The notes: generated from the sequence alone by a model not told the origin. A stretch of 50,415 bases of DNA from an uncultured Candidatus Saccharibacteria bacterium (GCA_964394505.1 CAYMXR010000002.1:2494-52908), one strand, 5' to 3'. Numbered from the stretch's first letter, positions 7,320 to 32,933 are shown. Made by a program: numbers and translations.

Positions 7320-7960
7320 TCTATTGAAATTTGACCAGTACTATCGACTACTATGGATTTTTTTGTACTACCATCCGAAGCGATTAGCTCGATTTTAGCA
7401 TATTTATAGGTAGTACAATTTTTTATTCTACTACCACCAGAAGTATAAGTAAGACAAATAATCGGTTCTGGGTTTGGTCTCTGGAAGACTATATCTAATT
7501 CATCACCACTAGAAAGAATAGAGGTACATTTTGCTTGATTTACTCCAACACACAAACTATTGATCTTCGCACCTCTTTTTAGAGTATAAGATTTTTCTTT
7601 AGTAACCTTAGCTGGATCATTCGACTTTGTGTAAGAATAAAGACTAAACTCATTGTTTGGACTACTGTGTAAAAAATTAACACCATAAGATCCAGTAAAA
7701 TCGACACCTGTAGTTGCTTTGACACTAATACCATAAGTCTGAGCTTGTCTCATAGTAAGAGCGACATCATAGGCCATGTTGGTAAATACTGTACCTGAAT
7801 AATAACTATTGTATTTAGCCAAGATAAGCGCAGTCATAAGAACAAAGATGCCGACCGTGACCATAAGTTCAATCAAAGTAAAAGCTTTTGTGCCTGAGAT
7901 ATGCCCAGGCGAGATTTTATTTTTTTTATCGTGCATTTTTTCTAAAAAGTGCGAAATCAT
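7316..7960 (-). CDS. Type IV minor pilin (FimT/GspH-like)
   Basis: Prepilin motif TKAFTLIELMVTVGIFVLM after a ~24-aa leader. Confidence 0.7.
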   Translation of the reverse strand: MISHFLEKMHDKKNKISPGHISGTKAFTLIELMVTVGIFVLMTALILAKYNSYYSGTVFTNMAYDVALTMRQAQTYGISVKATTGVDFTGSYGVNFLHSSPNNEFSLYSYTKSNDPAKVTKEKSYTLKRGAKINSLCVGVNQAKCTSILSSGDELDIVFQRPNPEPIICLTYTSGGSRIKNCTTYKYAKIELIASDGSTKKSIVVDSTGQISIE

Positions 7961-8043: not shown

Positions 8044-8838
8044 TTACCACAAAAATTCTTTTATTATAGATAAGTCTAATACCTCTAAACCAAAAAACAA
8101 AACCAAGTACATACCGAGTATGAGAAATGGACCAAAAGGTATTTCAACCCCTGATTTAAATTTTCCGTATTTGAGATAAAGCCATGACACAGAAACAATT
8201 GCTGCAATCCAAAAGGACAAGACTATAGAATTCACACCTCCACTGATACCCAAAAGCCAACCGATACCGATAACCAATTTTGCATCACCCAGACCCATCC
8301 ATGTTTGCTTCGACAAAAAGCCGATCAAGGCAAAAGGTAGAGCCAATAATGGACCAGCGATTATAAAACTCGTACTTGGAATATGAAACCAAGTTTCTCC
8401 TCCAATGAAAAGACTGATGATTGAAGAAACAATAAATAAATACACCAAAAGATTTGGAATAATCTTGTGTTTTATATCATAGACCGAAATAACGATGAGT
8501 AAACTTGCAACAACGAATTGTAATATCGTAACAAAAGCAAAAGATGCTGTCAGTGGTGGAAAATAGATGAAAATAAACAAGAAAAAGACTCCTGTTATAA
8601 ATTCAACGATTGGATATTGCCATGAAATAGGACTTTTGCATTTACTACACTTTCCTTTTTGAAATGCAAAACTCAGGATAGGAATAAGTTCTGTGTAAGA
8701 CAGTTGCCTGCCACAAGTCATGCACATCGATCTACCGCCAATTGTCTTTCCTGTATTGAAACGCAAAATTACGACATTCAAAAAACTTCCGATAATTGCT
8801 CCAAAAATAAAGACAAAGACTAATAGGACTATATCCAT
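8044..8838 (-). CDS. pilD: Prepilin peptidase / N-methyltransferase (A24 family)
   Basis: Polytopic membrane protein with the CxxC...CxxC cytoplasmic loop (CMTCGRQL...CSKCKSPI) and the GDAKL aspartyl motif. Confidence 0.9.
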   Translation of the reverse strand: MDIVLLVFVFIFGAIIGSFLNVVILRFNTGKTIGGRSMCMTCGRQLSYTELIPILSFAFQKGKCSKCKSPISWQYPIVEFITGVFFLFIFIYFPPLTASFAFVTILQFVVASLLIVISVYDIKHKIIPNLLVYLFIVSSIISLFIGGETWFHIPSTSFIIAGPLLALPFALIGFLSKQTWMGLGDAKLVIGIGWLLGISGGVNSIVLSFWIAAIVSVSWLYLKYGKFKSGVEIPFGPFLILGMYLVLFFGLEVLDLSIIKEFLW

Positions 8839-8839
8839 G

Positions 8840-9313
8840 CTATTTTGGTCCCACGCAGTAGTCTATGGTCGAAGGGGCGCAAGGACCAACACTATATCTA
8901 GTACCTGCTTCAGTAAGCCCTTCAGTCGTAGCACCGTTTCCGGTATTTTCTAACTCTGCTTTCAAGATATAATCAAGTGGCTCATTATTATCATCAACAC
9001 CGTAGATATAATTGACTTTTGTTAGAGGATCTTTCGGTATAACGGATATAAAATCAGTGATTTTTTTAGCGCAAGTAGTACTTGTATCTATTGCGCCAGA
9101 ACTATTTTTAGGATACACCCCACACCATTCGAAGTATTGCTCCAAAGCTAGTTGAATCTGAGCAATATCGGAAATTCGTTTTGCATCACGAGCCTTACTG
9201 CGAGATGAGCTTATATTGACAATGACAACTGCAGACAAAATCCCGATGATAGCGATAACAACTATAAGTTCAATCAATGTAAAGCCTTTTTTGTTTAATA
9301 GATATTTATTCAT
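8840..9313 (-). CDS. Type IV pilin paralogue 1
   Basis: KKGFTLIELIVVIAIIGILSAVV N-terminus and C-terminal cysteines. Confidence 0.85.
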   Translation of the reverse strand: MNKYLLNKKGFTLIELIVVIAIIGILSAVVIVNISSSRSKARDAKRISDIAQIQLALEQYFEWCGVYPKNSSGAIDTSTTCAKKITDFISVIPKDPLTKVNYIYGVDDNNEPLDYILKAELENTGNGATTEGLTEAGTRYSVGPCAPSTIDYCVGPK

Positions 9314-9337: not shown

Positions 9338-9802
9338 TTATTGTGGGCAGATCGCTTGAGTATTGTCTGTAGTAGCTTGGTTTGTAGTCCCTTTGGAATC
9401 AATACAAAACCATTGAGTTGTTGTGGAGACCAATTGTCCGTAAATGGCATAATCTAATACGGCTTCACCTTCGGTCGCCGGAGAATTGACTATATTTATG
9501 GTACTACCGAGACTGGCTATATCTCCTAGCAAGACATTAAGAGTTGTTGTGCCAGGATTTGCATCTGCAACCAACCCACCAAATATCTTTGTTGCATCGT
9601 TGGTCAAATCTGGATAAGTGACACCTGTATAATTTGACTCGATGATGGTCTTTATCTGTTTTACTCCGGAGATGACTTTGACATCTTGAGCTTTGCCTCT
9701 GGCGGAGTTGAGTGAAACCAAGACTGTACTTGCAAGTATGCCAATAATGGCGATGACTACTAGTAATTCGATAAGGGTGAAACCCTTTATTTTTTTATTC
9801 AT
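9338..9802 (-). CDS. Type IV pilin paralogue 2
   Basis: IKGFTLIELLVVIAIIGILASTV N-terminus and a C-terminal Cys pair (FCIDS...AICPQ). Confidence 0.85.
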   Translation of the reverse strand: MNKKIKGFTLIELLVVIAIIGILASTVLVSLNSARGKAQDVKVISGVKQIKTIIESNYTGVTYPDLTNDATKIFGGLVADANPGTTTLNVLLGDIASLGSTINIVNSPATEGEAVLDYAIYGQLVSTTTQWFCIDSKGTTNQATTDNTQAICPQ

Positions 9803-9852: not shown

Positions 9853-10275
9853 TTACGCAAACTTCTCAATCAATATTTTAGCGTATGTTTTGTACATTTC
9901 AAAATATTTTCTTGTAGAAATCACTAACTCATTCATTGAAAGCTTACCGTAATCATGGGTTATCTGATTACGCACCTTGGCTGATTCAGCAATCCCTTCA
10001 GCAAATTGTTGATCTATAATATTGAGTGGTACAATCTCATAAAATGATGACTTTGAAGAATCTGGGATCGTCCCACCTAATTGATAAATAAGAATTGCAT
10101 TTATATCAATAGCCTCATCAACGACTAACTGAAATGATCTTTCCATTGCAAGTCTTTTATCTTCATTCTGATTAATTTCTTCATCTGACAGAGACAAATA
10201 TGAACCAAGCATCTTGATATACTTCTGCAAAAGAAGAATTTTCTCTTTCAAGACTTTTTGAGCATCAGTATTCAT
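9853..10275 (-). CDS. hepT: HEPN-domain toxin, DUF86/HepT type
   Basis: 140 aa with the Rx4H motif in KVRNQITHDYG. Start overlaps the stop of the upstream nucleotidyltransferase by 1 nt. Confidence 0.8.
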   Translation of the reverse strand: MNTDAQKVLKEKILLLQKYIKMLGSYLSLSDEEINQNEDKRLAMERSFQLVVDEAIDINAILIYQLGGTIPDSSKSSFYEIVPLNIIDQQFAEGIAESAKVRNQITHDYGKLSMNELVISTRKYFEMYKTYAKILIEKFA

Positions 10276-10667
10276 TATATTTGTTTAGCCCACTCTACAA
10301 GTTGTCTGCTTGCTAAATTACGCAACCACGCAGTCTCCATCCAAACCCTGATAGCATAAAATTTCCAGCGCAAATAAATAGTTCTCTCTTTTTCATAGAG
10401 AAGCTTACCATCTTTCACTACTGCTCGCATGAGGGTTGGTGACGCTTTGCTAAGATCAACCGCCTGCACATCATCTCTTCCGAAGACCTTATCCATATCA
10501 GACATCAATTTGATCCTATCAAACTCATTACTGCTTATAACCCCTAGATCAACATCGCTTTTTGGATGAGTCCTGCCCGTTGCCTGAGAACCAAAAAGAA
10601 CGACGAAACTAAGCCCGTATTTCTCAGCCACTTCTGCTATTTTTGGCTTAATTGTTTCGATATTCAT
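10275..10667 (-). CDS. mntA: Minimal nucleotidyltransferase antitoxin (MntA type)
   Basis: LFGSQATGRTHPKSDVDLGV matches the GSx10-DxD pol-beta NT signature. Paired with HepT. Confidence 0.8.
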   Translation of the reverse strand: MNIETIKPKIAEVAEKYGLSFVVLFGSQATGRTHPKSDVDLGVISSNEFDRIKLMSDMDKVFGRDDVQAVDLSKASPTLMRAVVKDGKLLYEKERTIYLRWKFYAIRVWMETAWLRNLASRQLVEWAKQI

Positions 10668-10854
10668 GAAATAACTATAACATATTTTCAGTTCAACAAA
10701 AAATGACGCACCTTAAGATCAAAATTTGTGATCTTGAAGAAAGGACGGAATATCAAGTGCGCACCCAATCATACTATCTCTAATTAGGCTTAATTCAACC
10801 TAGTACACTATAGTGAATTTCACCCCACCCCACCACTTTTTTTACACTCCCTTT

Positions 10855-10884
10855 AACACAAACCACCCGCCGTACGGCGGGTGG
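10855..10884 (-). terminator. Rho-independent terminator after pilin paralogue 3
   Basis: Perfect 9-bp GC-rich stem CCACCCGCC-GTAC-GGCGGGTGG (10863..10884), followed on the minus strand by TTTGTGTT. Lies 27 nt past the stop codon. Confidence 0.7.
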
Positions 10885-10910
10885 AGAGATTAACAGACTA
10901 TAAATTAACG

Positions 10911-11414
10911 CTACTTGCAAGCACCATTAACAAACAAATCACCCTCGACAACAGGACTACTTAATGTCTCTTTCCTTGAATTCCCAAGACTATCAACACA
11001 CCAGGCGCCTCCAGTTGCACTAGAATAAGAACCGGCGACAGCATAAGAAGTTGCTTTTGCTGTAGCTGTACCATTATGAGTAAACCAAATCATTGTACCG
11101 GCAGGTAAATTTCCTGGGGTTAGCCCTAATGTTGCTTCTGCATTACTAAACACACTAGCATCAGTAGATGGTATTGTCATACCACCAACCACAAAAGCTG
11201 CCTTTGCTGCAGTACCTGCAGAATACCCATTGTTATTAGTATAATAAACTTCCGCTGCGGACCTAAAACCAGCCAACTGTGCTTGTACCTTTGCATCAGC
11301 ACCTTTACTTCTAGCTGAATTTAAACTGACCAAAACAACTGAGGCTAAAATACCAATAATAGCGATAACTACGAGCAACTCGATGAGGGTGAAACCTCGT
11401 GTGAACCTTTTCAT
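10911..11414 (-). CDS. Type IV pilin paralogue 3
   Basis: TRGFTLIELLVVIAIIGILASVVLVSLNSARSKG N-terminus, C-terminal Cys pair (WCVDS...GACK), own terminator. Confidence 0.88.
   Translation of the reverse strand: MKRFTRGFTLIELLVVIAIIGILASVVLVSLNSARSKGADAKVQAQLAGFRSAAEVYYTNNNGYSAGTAAKAAFVVGGMTIPSTDASVFSNAEATLGLTPGNLPAGTMIWFTHNGTATAKATSYAVAGSYSSATGGAWCVDSLGNSRKETLSSPVVEGDLFVNGACK
11338..11405 (-). repeat. 68-nt block, 66/68 identical to 12007..12074 (5' ends of adjacent pilin genes)
   Basis: Direct comparison of the two stretches shows only two substitutions. The other two pilin genes encode the same peptide with diverged codons. Confidence 0.9.
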
Positions 11415-11531
11415 ATTTTATTTTCTATTAATAATAACCTGATAATTAATCACCTAAATTTGGTTAATAGGTAACAGATATATTATACTACAATTTTAAG
11501 GTCCCTAAAGGTTAAGATGTGGACAACTTAA

Positions 11532-12086
11532 CTATTTAGCACAATCAATGGCCTTGGCGTCAGTATCGATATCTCCTGCAACAGTAGGAAATTGAGCACC
11601 TTTTTGAACTTTACCAGAAGAATTCATGCAATAGGCATCACCATCAGAAAGCTTGGCGTATATAGCATATCCACTACTAATATTTGTGTTGTCTTTGGTA
11701 ATAATTATGGAGCCGGCTTGTATAACAGGTGGAGCTGCATCTGTTCCTGCATATCCAACAGTACCAGTCACACCTGCCTGTGTTTGCTGTGTTATTGTAT
11801 CAGCAATTAAACTTCTCAATTCTGCAGACATTGTACCATTAGTAACAACCGTACTATATCTAGCAATCCTGGAAACTGGTGTTAGATCTTTGTATTTACC
11901 ATAAAAATCGGTATTATTTTCCAAAGCAGTCTTCATACTCCTTACATTAGAAATAATCCTTGCATCATTCCCCTTCTTCCTAGCTGATTGCAAGGAGACG
12001 AGAACGACTGAGGCTAAGATACCAATAATCGCGATAACTACGAGCAACTCGATGAGGGTGAAACCTCGTGTGAATCTTCGTGACAT
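11532..12086 (-). CDS. Type IV pilin paralogue 4
   Basis: TRGFTLIELLVVIAIIGILASVVLVSLQSARKKG N-terminus and a C-terminal Cys pair (YCMNS...IDCAK). Confidence 0.88.
   Translation of the reverse strand: MSRRFTRGFTLIELLVVIAIIGILASVVLVSLQSARKKGNDARIISNVRSMKTALENNTDFYGKYKDLTPVSRIARYSTVVTNGTMSAELRSLIADTITQQTQAGVTGTVGYAGTDAAPPVIQAGSIIITKDNTNISSGYAIYAKLSDGDAYCMNSSGKVQKGAQFPTVAGDIDTDAKAIDCAK
12007..12074 (-). repeat. Partner copy of the 68-nt pilin 5' block at 11338..11405
   Basis: See partner entry. 66/68 identical. Confidence 0.9.
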
Positions 12087-12153
12087 GTTTTTATATTAAA
12101 TACTAATTAATAATAACTTGTTGATAAATAACCTTATGCAAGGCTTTTGTTGA

Positions 12154-12162
12154 ATTATAACA
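12154..12162 (-). promoter_or_regulatory. Extended -10 promoter (TGTTATAAT) upstream of pilin paralogue 4
   Basis: Minus-strand TGTTATAAT about 68 nt upstream of the ATG at 12086. No good -35, which is acceptable for an extended -10. Confidence 0.4.
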
Positions 12163-12216
12163 CCCATATCTATATTAGGGGTGCTTTTTGAGGACAAACT
12201 GTGGATAGTGTAAAAA

Positions 12217-12531
12217 CTAGGCAATCCTCAATCCCGTCTTCTTGATCTCGTGGACCATGGGGTCCGCATCATCCTGCCAGTCCTCGGGCGCAAAACCGTG
12301 TGGCTCGATGCGTAGATCGATGTCTCTGCGAAATTTCCACAAAAGAAACCTCCCTTCTTGGTATTTTTCTCTCAAATCTGAGGAAACAACCGCAACATCT
12401 ATGTCACTATCCTTTTTTGATAATCCTTTTGCTTGTGAACCAAAAAGGTAAATAGCATCAAAAGACATGCCTTTTTTTATAAGGTTTTCTGCAAATCTCT
12501 TAACTATATTTATTATTTCAACATTTGCCAT
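12217..12531 (-). CDS. Minimal nucleotidyltransferase (pol-beta superfamily), partner of the HEPN ORF
   Basis: LFGSQAKGLSKKDSDIDVAVV signature. Overlaps the upstream HEPN ORF by 19 nt. Confidence 0.78.
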   Translation of the reverse strand: MANVEIINIVKRFAENLIKKGMSFDAIYLFGSQAKGLSKKDSDIDVAVVSSDLREKYQEGRFLLWKFRRDIDLRIEPHGFAPEDWQDDADPMVHEIKKTGLRIA

Positions 12532-12902
12532 AACTTTTTGTATATAATGTTTATTTTATCAATATATAAACTCGAAAAATCTTTGGTACATTGCTTATAA
12601 AATTCCAACTTACGCTCTGGATACCTGGCTCGAATATTAAAATCATTTGCCTTATCCAACAGGTCAATCTCATCACTACTCAATGAAATACCAGACAATT
12701 TGTATAATTGCAAAAGATCGTGAATATAAGGAGCCTGCTCTTTTGTATTTTTAACAACCAACCCCTTCAATATCTTCTCCAAAATAATATGCCCAAAAAA
12801 CAGAGAGTCGGAATACCGGCCACTTATAAATAGAACATCCATCGTTTCTCGATCATGCTCGGCGGTTGCAATCCAATAATTGACTACATCTTCAATAATC
12901 AT
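12513..12902 (-). CDS. HEPN domain protein (classical HEPN type)
   Basis: 129 aa helical protein with IHDLLQLY...NIRARYPE, the H-x-L and RYP motifs I associate with NT-linked HEPN domains. Confidence 0.65.
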   Translation of the reverse strand: MIIEDVVNYWIATAEHDRETMDVLFISGRYSDSLFFGHIILEKILKGLVVKNTKEQAPYIHDLLQLYKLSGISLSSDEIDLLDKANDFNIRARYPERKLEFYKQCTKDFSSLYIDKINIIYKKLWQMLK

Positions 12903-12937: not shown

Positions 12938-14149
12938 CTACTGCGCACCGGCGATGTTGTATATAGGAACGAGGACGGAGGCGAGAAGCACTGCGACGCC
13001 ACCGCCAAGCAAGACGATCATCACCGGCTCGATAAGAGAAACCAGAGCATCGACGGCGGTCTTGACTTCACGAGTATAAAAGTTCGCCAAAGTCTTTAGG
13101 ATTGAACCGACTTCTCCGGTCTCCTCTCCAACCTTAGTCATCTGAACCATAATACCTGGAATCTCATGAGGTCTATTGGTTAGAGCTTCGGAAAGAGTCT
13201 TGCCACCTTTTACGGCTTCCGAAGCTTCGATAAGTATTCCTTGATAGACTTTATTATCAATAATGTTACCAGTAAGCTCTATCGCTCTTACAATCGGAAT
13301 ACCAGAAGTTAACATTGTACTCATATTGTCTGCCAAACGAGAAAGATAAAGCTTACGAAATAGTGTGCTTATATAAGGTATATTCAATTTGAAACGGTCG
13401 TAAACTTCTCGGCCGGAAGGAGTGCGAATAAATCTGACAACTAAGAAGGCTACCACTATAAAAATTGCAAGTAGTACAAATCCGTATTCCACAAAGAAAT
13501 TACTGATACCCAAAATCACCGTAGTATAAACAGGTAATTCTGTACCACTTTCTGTCAAAATACCACTAATCTTTGGAATAACCATCGTAAACATGAGGAT
13601 CATCACCGTAAAAAATGTTACAACCACGAAAGCGGGATATATAAGAGCGCCACGGACTTTCGAGGTCAATTCGTAGGTTCTATCTAAATATGAAGCCAGA
13701 TATTCGAAGATCTCATCTAACTTTCCCGACTCTTCACCAGACTTAACCATGCTGACATAAAAATCACTAAAGACTTTTGGATGTTTTGCCAAAGCAACCG
13801 AAATAGAACTTCCGCTTTGGAGGTCATCTGCTATCACTATCAATTTTGAACGCAATAGGCTATTTTCGGTCTCACCGGCCAAAAGACGAAAGACCCGAAG
13901 AGCCGAAACCTGGGCTTGGAACAATGTCGCCAATTGACGGGACAAAATGACGACATCCTTGCTCGAGACTCGATCGAAAAAAGAGATTTTGCCAGAAAGA
14001 AATGAACCTGGTGCTCCAGCTTCCTTTATCGAAGCCAAAACCAGACCTCTTCTTTGCAAAGAAGCAATAGCAACATCGACATTGATCGCGTCAATCGAGC
14101 CATTTTTTTTGGCACCGGTCTCATCTAATACTTCATAGTTAAATAACAT
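12938..14149 (-). CDS. pilC: Type IV pilus platform protein (GspF family)
   Basis: 403 aa with two GspF repeats, three TM segments and typical PilC sequence. Confidence 0.92.
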   Translation of the reverse strand: MLFNYEVLDETGAKKNGSIDAINVDVAIASLQRRGLVLASIKEAGAPGSFLSGKISFFDRVSSKDVVILSRQLATLFQAQVSALRVFRLLAGETENSLLRSKLIVIADDLQSGSSISVALAKHPKVFSDFYVSMVKSGEESGKLDEIFEYLASYLDRTYELTSKVRGALIYPAFVVVTFFTVMILMFTMVIPKISGILTESGTELPVYTTVILGISNFFVEYGFVLLAIFIVVAFLVVRFIRTPSGREVYDRFKLNIPYISTLFRKLYLSRLADNMSTMLTSGIPIVRAIELTGNIIDNKVYQGILIEASEAVKGGKTLSEALTNRPHEIPGIMVQMTKVGEETGEVGSILKTLANFYTREVKTAVDALVSLIEPVMIVLLGGGVAVLLASVLVPIYNIAGAQ

Positions 14150-15228: not shown

Positions 15229-15642
15229 TTATGATTTTTTACTAGAGCAAATCTTCTCTACTTCTACTAGAACCTCTGATGGTATAGATGTTGCTTTGAC
15301 TATATAGCCATCTACATTGGCTTTTTGTGCTCTTGCAACATCATCAGAAGCGCTTTGGTTTGTAAGCATGATGATAGCTGAACCAGTAGCTAGTTTTTCT
15401 CCTCGAATGGTGGAAACAAAATCCAGACCGTCCATACCAGGCATAACAATATCGATCAACATTACATTTGGAACATATCCATCACGAAGAATTTTGAGGG
15501 CTAATTCGGTAGAATTTGCCACTTTTACATCATAACCGGCTTTGGTAAATTTCATTGAATACATGTCCAACAAAAAACTATCGTCATCAACAAACATTAT
15601 TTTCTTTTGAGTATTTTGATCTGCCATAATTATATTATACAA
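15229..15642 (-). CDS. Stand-alone response-regulator receiver domain (CheY/PilH-like)
   Basis: FVDDD acidic pocket, phospho-acceptor context LIDIVMPGMDG, conserved T (LTNQ) and K (GYIVKA). No output domain. Confidence 0.8.
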   Translation of the reverse strand: MYNIIMADQNTQKKIMFVDDDSFLLDMYSMKFTKAGYDVKVANSTELALKILRDGYVPNVMLIDIVMPGMDGLDFVSTIRGEKLATGSAIIMLTNQSASDDVARAQKANVDGYIVKATSIPSEVLVEVEKICSSKKS

Positions 15643-15653
15643 TAAAAAAATTA

Positions 15654-17387
15654 TTAAAGTTTATTTACCTCTTCAAAAGGAATCTTCTTTTCAAAAGCTT
15701 TGACAATGGCACTTTCTCGAATCGACAACATTCCCTTTTTTCTAGCAATCTTTAGGATCTCTGACTCGACAGGATTGGTCAAAATTGCATTTTCTATATC
15801 TCTATCCATCATGAACATCTCGAACACCGCCATGCGACCACGAGTACCCTTTGGACAATCTGGAGTAGGTTTTATCTTGTAGACCGTATCAGAAAATGGT
15901 ATTTCTTTCATATACTCTTCTGGTAAATCGATAAAATTCCTTTCAATAAGAGCTTTGGTATTTCCTTCAACTTTGATCAATTCGCCATTATTTGGGCAAA
16001 GTGTACCAACCAATCGTTGGGCAATAGTAAGGATAAGGGTCGGAGCAATAAGGTAAGGGTCGACTCCCATATCAATAAGACGAGGGATTACTCCGGCAGC
16101 GTTGTTTGTGTGTAGTGTCGAAAAAACCAAGTGACCAGTCAAAGCAGCTTGAACGGCCAGCTGGGCAGTTTCTTTGTCTCGAATCTCTCCTACCATGATC
16201 ACATCAGGGTCTTGTCGCAAAGTAGTACGGAGGCCGGAACTAAAATCATATCCTATTTCTGGACGGACTTGTGACTGACTTACCCCCTCGATCTGATATT
16301 CGACAGGATCTTCCAAAGAAAGCACATTGTAACTTTCTCGATCTACTTCTTCCAAAATCGAATAAAGGGTTGTGGACTTTCCGGAACCGGTAGGACCAGT
16401 AATAAGAATCATTCCGTAAGGAGCATTTATGGCTTTACGGACCATCTCTAGATACCTTGGAGAAAAACCAAGTTTGTCTATAGTGCGAATACCCTTGGCT
16501 TGATCCAAGATACGCATCACCACCTTTTCACCATAATAAGCTGGGAATGTAGAGACACGAAAGTCTATACGCCTTCCATCAATACGAGCAGAGAACCTAC
16601 CGTCTTGTGGTTTGCGTCTTTCGTCCAATTTCATATTAGACAAAACTTTGATACGAGAAACTACAGCCGAATGGATCTGCGGTGGCAAGACCAGACTAGT
16701 ATTCAATATCCCATCGACACGAAACCTAACTCTAACCTTCTCTCGCATATGCTCTATGTGCACATCAGAAGCTTCTCCTTCTACTGCATAACGGACAATT
16801 GTTGCCACGATCTTGACTACCGGTGCATCTTCGACTATCAACGCTTCTGATTTATCTTCTTCTGACTTACCATCTCCTTCTTTCTTATTCCCTTTCTTCT
16901 TTGAATCTACAACCTCTGCCGAAAGCTCCGTCTCGAGTTCTGACAAAGCTTTTGTTACTTCTCCAGTCAAACCTTTGTACATCTCTATGATCTTTTCAAA
17001 ATCGCTGACGGTAATAAGAAAAACATTGTAAGGAATATTCTTTTTAGTCGCCAAGAAATTTAGAGCGTCCCGAGCTTCCATATTGTCTGGATCAACGATT
17101 CCAACCTCCAAGGTATCGTTTACCAACCCTATCGGCGCAAAACGATAATGGCGTGCAGATTCTTCTGGAATATATTCCAAAACATCAAATGGTACTGTTG
17201 AAGCTCCGAGGGAACGAACGGGTACATTCAAAAACTCTCCCCTAGCATTCAAAATATCTTCTTGTTTAACACCGTGCGCAGCCAATGCTTCATCCATCGA
17301 AACACCGGTTGATATTTGTTTACGGATTTCTCCTATATCAACCTTATTAATCAACTTTTTTTGCAAAAGAATATCGAGGACTGACAT
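15654..17387 (-). CDS. pilB: Type IV pilus assembly (extension) ATPase
   Basis: 577 aa with an N-terminal GspE-N domain, Walker A GPTGSGKSTT and GHLVFSTLHTNN. Confidence 0.92.
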   Translation of the reverse strand: MSVLDILLQKKLINKVDIGEIRKQISTGVSMDEALAAHGVKQEDILNARGEFLNVPVRSLGASTVPFDVLEYIPEESARHYRFAPIGLVNDTLEVGIVDPDNMEARDALNFLATKKNIPYNVFLITVSDFEKIIEMYKGLTGEVTKALSELETELSAEVVDSKKKGNKKEGDGKSEEDKSEALIVEDAPVVKIVATIVRYAVEGEASDVHIEHMREKVRVRFRVDGILNTSLVLPPQIHSAVVSRIKVLSNMKLDERRKPQDGRFSARIDGRRIDFRVSTFPAYYGEKVVMRILDQAKGIRTIDKLGFSPRYLEMVRKAINAPYGMILITGPTGSGKSTTLYSILEEVDRESYNVLSLEDPVEYQIEGVSQSQVRPEIGYDFSSGLRTTLRQDPDVIMVGEIRDKETAQLAVQAALTGHLVFSTLHTNNAAGVIPRLIDMGVDPYLIAPTLILTIAQRLVGTLCPNNGELIKVEGNTKALIERNFIDLPEEYMKEIPFSDTVYKIKPTPDCPKGTRGRMAVFEMFMMDRDIENAILTNPVESEILKIARKKGMLSIRESAIVKAFEKKIPFEEVNKL

Positions 17388-27767: not shown

Positions 27768-27815
27768 ATTATTATCCTAGCATAGGAATATGGTCGAATC
27801 TAGCAATATTTTTTG

Positions 27816-27887
27816 TCCGCCCTCCTGGACTTGAACCAGGAACCGATCGAGTATAAGTCGATTGCTCTACCATTGAGCTAAGGGCGG
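27816..27887 (-). tRNA. tRNA-Ile (anticodon UAU)
   Basis: Minus strand CCGCCCT-TA-GCTC-AATGGTA-GAGC-A-ATCGA-CTTATAC-TCGAT-CGGTT-CCTGG-TTCAAGT-CCAGG-AGGGCGG-A. The 7-nt anticodon loop has UAU at 34-36. CCA not encoded. Confidence 0.8.
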
Positions 27888-32514: not shown

Positions 32515-32517
32515 TTG

Positions 32518-32933
32518 TGGAGATGGGCGGAATCGAACCGCCGTGCAACTGATATGTGAAGAACGATTCTACAGTGTTAGCTAACCTTGTACCACCTTGC
32601 GATGGATTTAATGAATGTATCCGAGAAAGTTAGCAAAATGTACATTCACGATCTCTAAGCTTCGAGAATAAAAGTGAGAAGCTCTTATTCCCTACATCCA
32701 AGTTATTACACCAGCTCTATTGTTAGGATCCCAATAGAGTGATGGCCCTTATACAAGAGCAAATGCAAGTTCCTTTGCTCCGAAATACGGAGTAACGGTT
32801 GATTTAGCATTTAGAGTTTCCGTCAGATTTCCGTCCCACTACGCTCTGCAAAGCAGAGCTTCGCGGGACTCCGAGTTAACGGTGCTCGCACTGCACGAAC
32901 TTACATGACCGGTTGTCTATGCCGATCATCCCC
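32518..32933 (-). ncRNA. ssrA: tmRNA (ssrA)
   Basis: 5' GGGGATG pairs with 3' CATCTCC-A, including the G3:U70 alanine identity pair. T arm GGCGG-TTCGATT-CCGCC. Internal tag frame GCT AAA TCA ... GTA TAA at 32749..32808. Lies next to smpB. Confidence 0.85.

Follow-up and report, generated by a model that had tools for sequence, protein, structure and literature searches.

The window analysed here is a 50,415-nt stretch of DNA from an uncultured Candidatus Saccharibacteria bacterium (GCA_964394505.1, CAYMXR010000002.1:2494-52908), whose minus strand carries a complete type IV pilus (T4P) operon at 3.6-20.1 kb according to hidden Markov model (HMM) searches and open reading frame (ORF) calls. 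The operon consists, from 5' to 3', of pilM, pilN/O-like genes, pilB, a receiver-only response regulator gene, pilT, pilC, HEPN1, NT1, pilin4, pilin3, a terminator, MntA, HepT, pilin2, pilin1, pilD, four minor pilin-like genes, and ligA. Two gene pairs that join a HEPN protein to a nucleotidyltransferase (NT), namely HEPN1-NT1 (module 1) and MntA-HepT (module 2), lie between pilC and pilD, and these are the only HEPN/NT genes in the whole window. Judged from the relatives of its PilC, the host is a Taylorbacteria/Paceibacteria-like member of Patescibacteria.

Genes of the pilC-pilD interval

All eight genes of the interval, like its two borders, are co-directional on the minus strand. The conserved left border is pilC (12938..14149), which encodes the T2SSF platform protein (PF00482, E 5e-54), and the conserved right border is pilD (8044..8838), which encodes the prepilin peptidase (A24 peptidase; PF06750, E 2.8e-29; PF01478). 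Module 1 starts with HEPN1 (12513..12902), a classical HEPN-T gene (PF05168, E 1.5e-15), followed by NT1 (12217..12531), a minimal nucleotidyltransferase (MNT) gene (PF01909, E 1.5e-9; PF18765). It is followed by two variable prepilin genes, pilin 4 (11532..12086; N_methyl, E 6e-9) and pilin 3 (10911..11414; N_methyl, E 4.7e-9), the latter probably encoding a major pilin, and by an intrinsic-terminator-like hairpin at 10884..10863, which consists of a 9-bp stem with 8 G-C pairs and a T-rich tail (TTTGTGTT). Module 2 comprises the predicted adenylyltransferase antitoxin MntA (10275..10667; NF047752, 80 bits against a cut-off of 60) and the predicted HEPN ribonuclease (RNase) toxin HepT (9853..10275; NF047751, 68.7 bits against a cut-off of 60); the prepilin pilin 2 (9338..9802; N_methyl, E 1.1e-9) and the GspG-like prepilin pilin 1 (8840..9313; N_methyl and a weak T2SSG match) complete the interval. 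A first-pass annotation of the window had placed four toxin-antitoxin (TA) ORFs at these minus-strand coordinates between pilC and pilD, and they are indeed there. The families that it named (HEPN, NT, MntA and HepT/DUF86) were recovered by the HMM searches (PF05168, PF01909, NF047752 and NF047751), its four pilins are borne out by their N_methyl motifs, and its terminator after pilin 3 is real; it was also correct that the two HEPN subtypes differ and that the internal gene orders of the modules are opposite.

Both modules lie on the operon strand, the stop of pilC and the start of HEPN1 are separated by 35 nt with no terminator in the gap, and MntA-HepT is preceded by the pilin3 terminator and followed, after a gap of 50 nt, by pilin2-pilin1-pilD; judging from strand and spacing, it is therefore probable that both modules share transcripts with the pilus genes or that their transcription runs on into these. 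Scanning for sigma-70-like promoters gave fewer sites than in shuffled sequence. According to Rfam, no RNA family is present in the 243-nt pilin3-MntA spacer or in the rest of the interval (a tmRNA and two tRNAs were detected, all elsewhere in the window), and no tRNA gene lies inside the interval.

The four pilin genes carry a common 119-nt N-terminal DNA repeat (9181-9299, 9679-9797, 11291-11409 and 11960-12078; 62-84% identity), and pilin3 and pilin4 additionally have a 29-nt upstream element in common. These two had been described as the most similar pilins of the interval, which holds for their N-terminal 40 residues (87.5% identity; at the DNA level 84%, across 119 nt) and fails over the full length, where their identity is 37.0%, compared with 36.9% for pilin1/pilin2; the C-terminal domains of pilin3 and pilin4 are 22% identical. 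Similarly, the mirror arrangement proposed for the two modules stands as regards domain order only, while the genes all share one strand and have no inverted repeats at their flanks. As a feature of structure, mirror symmetry was consequently rejected, and the arrangement is regarded as a coincidence, because each module family has its own fixed gene order.

Two kinds of HEPN/NT module

The type VII HepT/MntA system is defined by a GSx10DxD motif in MntA and an Rx4HxY motif in HepT (Yao et al. 2020, PMC7641770). In module 2, the mntA gene is located 5' of hepT with an overlap of 1 nt, and its product carries the GSx10DxD motif (GSQATGRTHPKSDVD), matches the Protein Data Bank (PDB) chains 5YEP_A and 7AE2_B, and also matches the PADLOC defence candidate PDC-S09. 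HepT belongs to PF01934 (E 2.5e-16, 59.9 bits against a cut-off of 23.5), and its Rx4HxY motif reads RNQITHDY, with R102, H107 and Y109 invariant in 17 homologues; in the alignment with the AMPylated HEPN toxin 7AE9 (E 8e-16), RNQITHDY stands opposite RNRLVHEY. Every sequence-level feature of the definition is found, and module 2 is, as far as its sequence goes, a canonical HepT/MntA pair of the type VII class of toxin-antitoxin systems. By homology, the GSx10DxD site of MntA would oligo-AMPylate Tyr109 of HepT beside the Rx4H RNase site, and the RNase site of AMPylated HepT would be masked and stay silent until MntA activity drops. MntA-catalysed oligo-AMPylation of HepT Tyr109 is most likely the way in which module 2 acts.

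The ORFs of module 1 overlap by 19 nt. The HEPN1-family profile had no match among PDB chains at E<=0.01, and a fold search was needed: the AlphaFold2 (AF2) model of HEPN1 (predicted local distance difference test score, pLDDT, 95) gave TT1696 (1UFB), ST0689 (1WOL), AF0298 (2HSB) and TM0613 (1O3U) as top matches in Foldseek, with template modelling (TM) scores of 0.60-0.80 (0.79 to 1UFB and 0.75 to 2HSB). The invariant residues of HEPN1 are R91, R93, Y94, P95, E96, H16, D17, H38 and H61, and the whole family has the invariant signature FNIRxRYPE with a non-canonical RxRYPE site; the literature searches of this analysis did not turn up this signature. The canonical Rx4-6H motif is missing, with no His 4-6 residues from R91 (R91-x4-E96 instead). 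According to Anantharaman et al. 2013 (PMC3710099), HEPN-T proteins often swap the motif His for an acidic residue, and another conserved His may form an alternative site; the residue pattern of HEPN1, with an acidic residue for His and other invariant histidines, fits this HEPN-T group. NT1 carries an intact GSx10DxD motif (GSQAKGLSKKDSDID) and matches PDC-S09 (E 3e-12), and its NF047752 score of 39 bits, from a match limited to profile positions 5-45, is under the MntA equivalog cut-off of 60. Of 80 metagenomic loci of the HEPN1 family, 78 have the HEPN gene 5' of the NT gene, as does the window, whereas the MNT gene is almost always 5' of HEPN in classical dyads (PMC3710099). All named homologues of the HEPN1 family come from Patescibacteria groups. 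Module 1 is thus assigned, from its profile matches and conserved residues, to a large Patescibacteria-specific HEPN-T/minimal-NT family with reversed gene order and a non-canonical active site.

Module 1 would probably act in a similar way, with the NT controlling the HEPN protein, and either partner could be the toxin. It is possible, though doubtful, that module 1 is not a HEPN-toxin system at all: NT1 may be an AbiEii/MenT-like toxin with HEPN1 as its antitoxin or regulator, or the pair may form a non-toxic regulatory or nucleotide-binding complex. The R91-x4-E96 arrangement in place of Rx4-6H and the location of the other invariant residues elsewhere in HEPN1 fit such roles, and so do the intact GSx10DxD of NT1, its score under the equivalog cut-off and the HEPN-first order of the family. 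However, toxin-first order is known from other TA families (higBA, mqsRA). In addition, the acidic swap with an alternative His is a described HEPN-T trait (PMC3710099) for which HEPN1 has the invariant H16, H38 and H61. Among side observations, the HEPN-T/NT module adjoins a second MntA/HepT-type pair in loci L108, L089 and L139 (loci labelled L### are related loci compared with the window), and the two subtypes tend to co-occur, as in the window. The signature motifs of both modules are all present in the window, and the modules look functional.

The interval in related loci and the linkage to pilins

The comparison set consisted of 80 loci encoding PilC relatives with 67-83% identity to PilC of the window; interval lengths and the adjacency of pilin1 and PilD were taken from 48 closed (complete) loci. 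Common to the 80 loci is a backbone in which PilC is followed by a variable stretch, then by pilin1, PilD, a set of four minor pilins, and finally LigA. The distance between pilC and pilD is 1.1 kb at its shortest, where the interval contains one variable pilin besides pilin1, and 9.5 kb at its longest, as against 4.1 kb in the window, and pilin1 is located directly ahead of PilD in all 48 closed loci, while the number of pilins in the interval varies from one to four per locus. Relative to the window, PilM, PilB, PilT and PilC have median identities of 73-76%, PilD has 59%, and the pilins have 38-43%; the best relative of pilin 4 is in L009 (50% identity), and pilin 2 shares 67% identity with its L009 counterpart. 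With divergent pilins, varying copy number and conserved flanking biogenesis genes, the interval has the properties of a variable-pilin island. The operon architecture differs in a sub-clade of six loci (L046, L052, L056, L058, L069 and L072), where pilD is not within 10 kb and the first pilin is instead followed by a gene for a VirD4/TrwB-like coupling ATPase and by several GT1/GT4 genes (GT, glycosyltransferase) in a row.

The cargo of the interval in relatives is diverse. Glycan-type genes include GT1/GT4 (14 ORFs), GT2 of ~800 aa (10), Wzy_C/TPR ligase-like (5) and Bac_transf (5) genes as well as methyltransferases and PAP2; such glycosylation-type genes are present in many relatives' intervals and absent from that of the window, and they may act on pilin. 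Mobile genes comprise IS200/Y1 transposase-like genes (IS, insertion sequence) in 6-7 loci and one IS1595 transposase. VirD4-like ATPases are also found, and DUF4143 AAA ATPases lie directly 3' of pilC in three loci. TA/abortive-infection (Abi)-type and other genes include MazF/PemK-like toxins (L013, L097), DUF559, ORF6N, AbiEii, PIN and DUF3800, and ten small unassigned ORFs in these intervals had no NCBIfam or Pfam match. Conflict genes crowd the interval of one relative, L089:4647-13826, which holds an AbiEi-like/AbiEii pair, DUF3800, PIN, HEPN1-NT1, a MntA/HepT-like pair, an IS200-like transposase, and one variable pilin.

TA-type genes recur within the interval in L005, L013, L040, L089/L090, L094 and L097, in varying positions, and those of five lineages besides the window include HEPN/NT modules. 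Module 1 follows pilC directly in L094 (PilC-HEPN1-NT1-pilin), is placed after two pilins in L040, and follows a GT2 and a methyltransferase gene directly ahead of pilin1 in L097; in L089/L090, HEPN1-NT1 and a MntA/HepT-like pair are both inverted relative to the pilus genes. MntA-HepT is found after a Wzy_C gene in L005 (65-68% identity). A frameshift in HEPN1 of L040 was considered as a sign of a pseudogene and was not relied on, since several other L040 genes are also split, maybe by sequencing error. Among the loci whose interval is complete, L009 is the closest (PilC 82%); its pilC is directly followed by a pilin4-like and a pilin3-like gene and then by a Wzy_C gene, and no TA gene is present. 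In L002 and L004 (PilC ~80% identity), a pilin directly follows pilC. A remnant of the Wzy_C ligase between pilin3 and MntA, expected from the L009 and L005 layouts, was not found by tblastn. The first-pass annotation had asked whether the TA-pilin-pilin-TA block is present or absent as a unit. Such a block was detected in none of the 80 genome loci and none of 80 metagenome loci, and it is not a unit, because no relative has it and L009 holds the pilin pair without the modules. That the region is exchanged and rearranged between genomes was supported by the interval comparison.

Insertion footprints were found at the 3' end of pilC. This end is duplicated beyond HEPN1-NT1 in L094 (86-94 nt, ~84% identity; 473-566 and 1343-1440), copied after the AbiE-like pair in L089 (32 nt, 94% identity; ~10978-11009 vs 12615-12646), and copied after a DUF4143 ATPase in L059 (18 nt exact; ~7897-7914 and 9083-9100), which supports the position of HEPN1-NT1 in the window as a recurrent insertion point. 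These duplications suggest single-crossover (Campbell-type) or site-specific, attachment-site-like integration at the pilC terminus, and nucleotide similarity between cassette copies ends at ORF boundaries. A different pattern was observed ~0-5 kb 3' of pilC in L006, L027 and L048, where an IS200/Y1_Tnp-like gene is surrounded by numerous direct as well as inverted copies (17-22 nt) of the post-pilC sequence, a layout resembling repetitive extragenic palindromic (REP) elements with REP-associated tyrosine transposase.

Beyond the pilus locus, a pilin gene lies within 5 kb in 5 of the 80 metagenomic HEPN1-family loci and a T4P core gene in 7. Close homologues of HepT (53-68% identity) were found in four other contexts, adjoining RNase R, GreA 3' of a ribosomal protein operon, AbiEii with a SEC-C protein, and a PfkB kinase. 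Of five contexts of close MntA-HepT homologues, four have nothing to do with pili, and the location of TA genes at such unrelated loci had been named by the first-pass annotation as a refutation of its proposal. These distributions, together with the four positions of HEPN1-NT1 in other loci and its inversion in L089, do not bear out the supposed TA-pilin linkage. A phage origin of the modules was rejected, as neither HEPN family has relatives in IMG/VR viral contigs.

On this evidence, we consider it probable that the window carries two self-contained, intact HEPN/NT cassettes of TA type lodged in a hypervariable pilin island or insertion hotspot, with a positional linkage to the pilins and no fixed functional block. 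The stretch between pilC and pilin1-pilD would serve as an insertion hotspot with fast-evolving pilins and changing cargo, and the linkage of modules and pilins would reflect this hotspot, possibly with hitch-hiking when island segments recombine. Several observations weigh against this reading. The window's own modules show no target duplication and no inverted repeat, and direct or inverted repeats flanking either module in the window do not exceed those of shuffled controls; because HEPN1 lacks canonical Rx4-6H, its RNase activity is only putative. Within ~1.4 Mb of PilC-anchored loci, family-specific HMMs detected two modules inside the interval and one NT outside, so that the enrichment of HEPN/NT over the flanks stands on small numbers. 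In a neighbour-joining tree of concatenated HEPN1 and NT1, the interval copies (window, L094, L040, L097, L089/90, and probably L092, whose module adjoins a GT2/methyltransferase pair) fall in a single clade, together with L088, L093 and L095 from non-pilus or unknown contexts, with at least 5 of ~9 lineages located in the interval. Random insertion alone therefore does not account for the pattern, and the module may have been kept in the island by vertical descent or may have a true preference for it. The tree points to one HEPN1-NT1 lineage that persisted and moved within the island of the host clade, but the grouping could simply mirror host phylogeny.

The clade enrichment also speaks for a functional coupling, in which the modules are co-regulated with the pilus and form an abortive-infection or stress switch against pilus-dependent phage or incoming DNA, so that the island joins receptor variation and intracellular defence. 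The common strand, the tight and terminator-free spacing to pilC and the recurrence of the PilC-HEPN1-NT1-pilin junction in L094 agree with this, as do the AbiEii, PIN, MazF and pilin-glycosylation-type genes that share the interval in relatives and the PDC-S09 matches of both NTs. However, the interval lacks a HEPN/NT module in most related loci, the position varies where one is present, and the inversion in L089 rules out obligatory co-transcription; with few pilin or T4P genes near HEPN1-family loci and the close MntA-HepT homologues mostly at unrelated loci, we regard the coupling as unlikely, and any action of the modules on the pilus is conjecture. There is likewise only a slim chance that a wider scenario applies, in which the pilC 3' end is an attachment-like site in Taylorbacteria-type Patescibacteria where circular or transformed DNA cassettes integrate, building an anti-phage pilus island of receptor variation (pilin alleles and glycosylation) and abortive-infection modules, with one reverse-order HEPN-T/NT lineage specialised there, read through from pilC and monitoring pilus-dependent phage or DNA entry. 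TA genes are known to help retain DNA that is otherwise dispensable, and the two modules might instead flank and stabilise a horizontally acquired pilin4-pilin3 cassette, with the four-part block gained or lost as one. The 5' region is duplicated between pilin4 and pilin3, which have the look of a tandem cassette, and the interval is clearly exchanged between lineages; but the homologous pilin pair of L009 stands without either module, no locus has the four-part block, each module occurs alone elsewhere (L005, L040, L094 and L097), and the modules are unrelated cassettes with independent distributions, which makes stabilisation very unlikely. Both the pilin-cassette stabilisation and the pilus-coupled defence ideas are weakened by the comparative evidence from sequence.

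An artefactual origin of the arrangement, with strain variants joined across the repeated pilin N-termini into an assembly chimera, is extremely improbable. No full-length pilin4 or pilin3 protein is recorded from any other source, and independent short-read assemblies break exactly within the repeated N-termini, at window positions 12045 (pilin4) and 11391 (pilin3), so the pilin4-pilin3 junction is without independent support. However, both flanking stretches are confirmed: pilT-pilC-HEPN1-NT1 to the start of pilin4 by L081 (100% nucleotide identity), and pilin3-terminator-MntA-HepT-pilin2 through ligA by L085 (100%), from the same sample as L081, and by L086 (98.6%). The repeats are only 84% identical, and their collapse is thus unlikely. 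Both modules are present in every close variant of the population recovered, on contigs from several independent samples with 98.6-100% nucleotide identity.

Elsewhere in the operon, the receiver-only response regulator gene (15229-15642, minus strand) lies between pilB (15654-17387, minus strand) and pilT, a position kept in 77 of the 80 related loci. Outside the operon, the window carries a tRNA-Ile gene with anticodon TAT (UAU) at 27815-27887 (minus strand), an uncommon way to read AUA, and a tmRNA gene at 32515-32933.

Comparison with known systems

Patescibacteria have tiny genomes and are believed to rely on type IV pili when they attach to hosts and take up DNA, and to our knowledge descriptions of accessory or defence loci from them are few. 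Pilin diversification, glycosylation genes, transposases, and TA/Abi-type genes appear to be concentrated in a single slot of the pilus operon, which offers a tangible site at which the plasticity of genomes and the pressure from phages can be studied in this group. The two modules are new instances of known toxin-antitoxin kinds and otherwise ordinary. Mildly novel are the hotspot inside a Patescibacteria pilus operon, with its pilC-end duplications, and the large, uncharacterised HEPN-T/NT family with reverse gene order and RxRYPE signature that is brought to notice here.

Module 2 resembles the type VII HepT/MntA system in its antitoxin gene coming first and overlapping the toxin gene, its DUF86/HepT-like toxin, its MNT with GSx10DxD, and in that both proteins score above the NCBIfam equivalog cut-offs and directly match solved structures by sequence. 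It differs in lying within the pilus operon of a reduced-genome Patescibacterium, and its predicted proteins have low scores to the solved chains (33-62 bits for HepT and 27-33 bits for MntA). HEPN1 shares the PF05168 domain, the fold and the adjoining minimal NT with the HEPN-T proteins 1UFB, 1WOL, 2HSB and 1O3U and, like the AF0298 group, lacks the Rx4-6H His while conserving other histidines; unlike in classical HEPN-T/minimal NT pairs, the HEPN gene comes first across the family.

Pilin islands with allele-specific accessory genes are known, such as the pilA locus of Pseudomonas aeruginosa with tfpO/tfpW-Z. The island of the window's clade is similar in having divergent major pilin alleles amid conserved biogenesis genes and variable accessory genes, including Wzy_C/O-antigen-ligase-like genes and glycosyltransferases. 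Unlike the pilA locus, it sits inside the operon with pilC and pilD on either side, can contain as many as four pilins, and also gathers transposases and TA/Abi genes, and the window's own interval has neither a tRNA gene nor a glycosylation gene. Core genes are also known to border defence islands and integration hotspots, from which the pilC-pilD slot differs in that most of its cargo is glycosylation-related, no integrase was seen, and its defence role is putative. It resembles them in the target-end duplications at pilC in three loci and in differing TA, Abi and mobile genes (AbiE, PIN, MazF, HEPN/NT, DUF4143 and IS200-like) in each genome, so that, as in such hotspots, different TA, defence and mobile genes occupy one syntenic slot across genomes.

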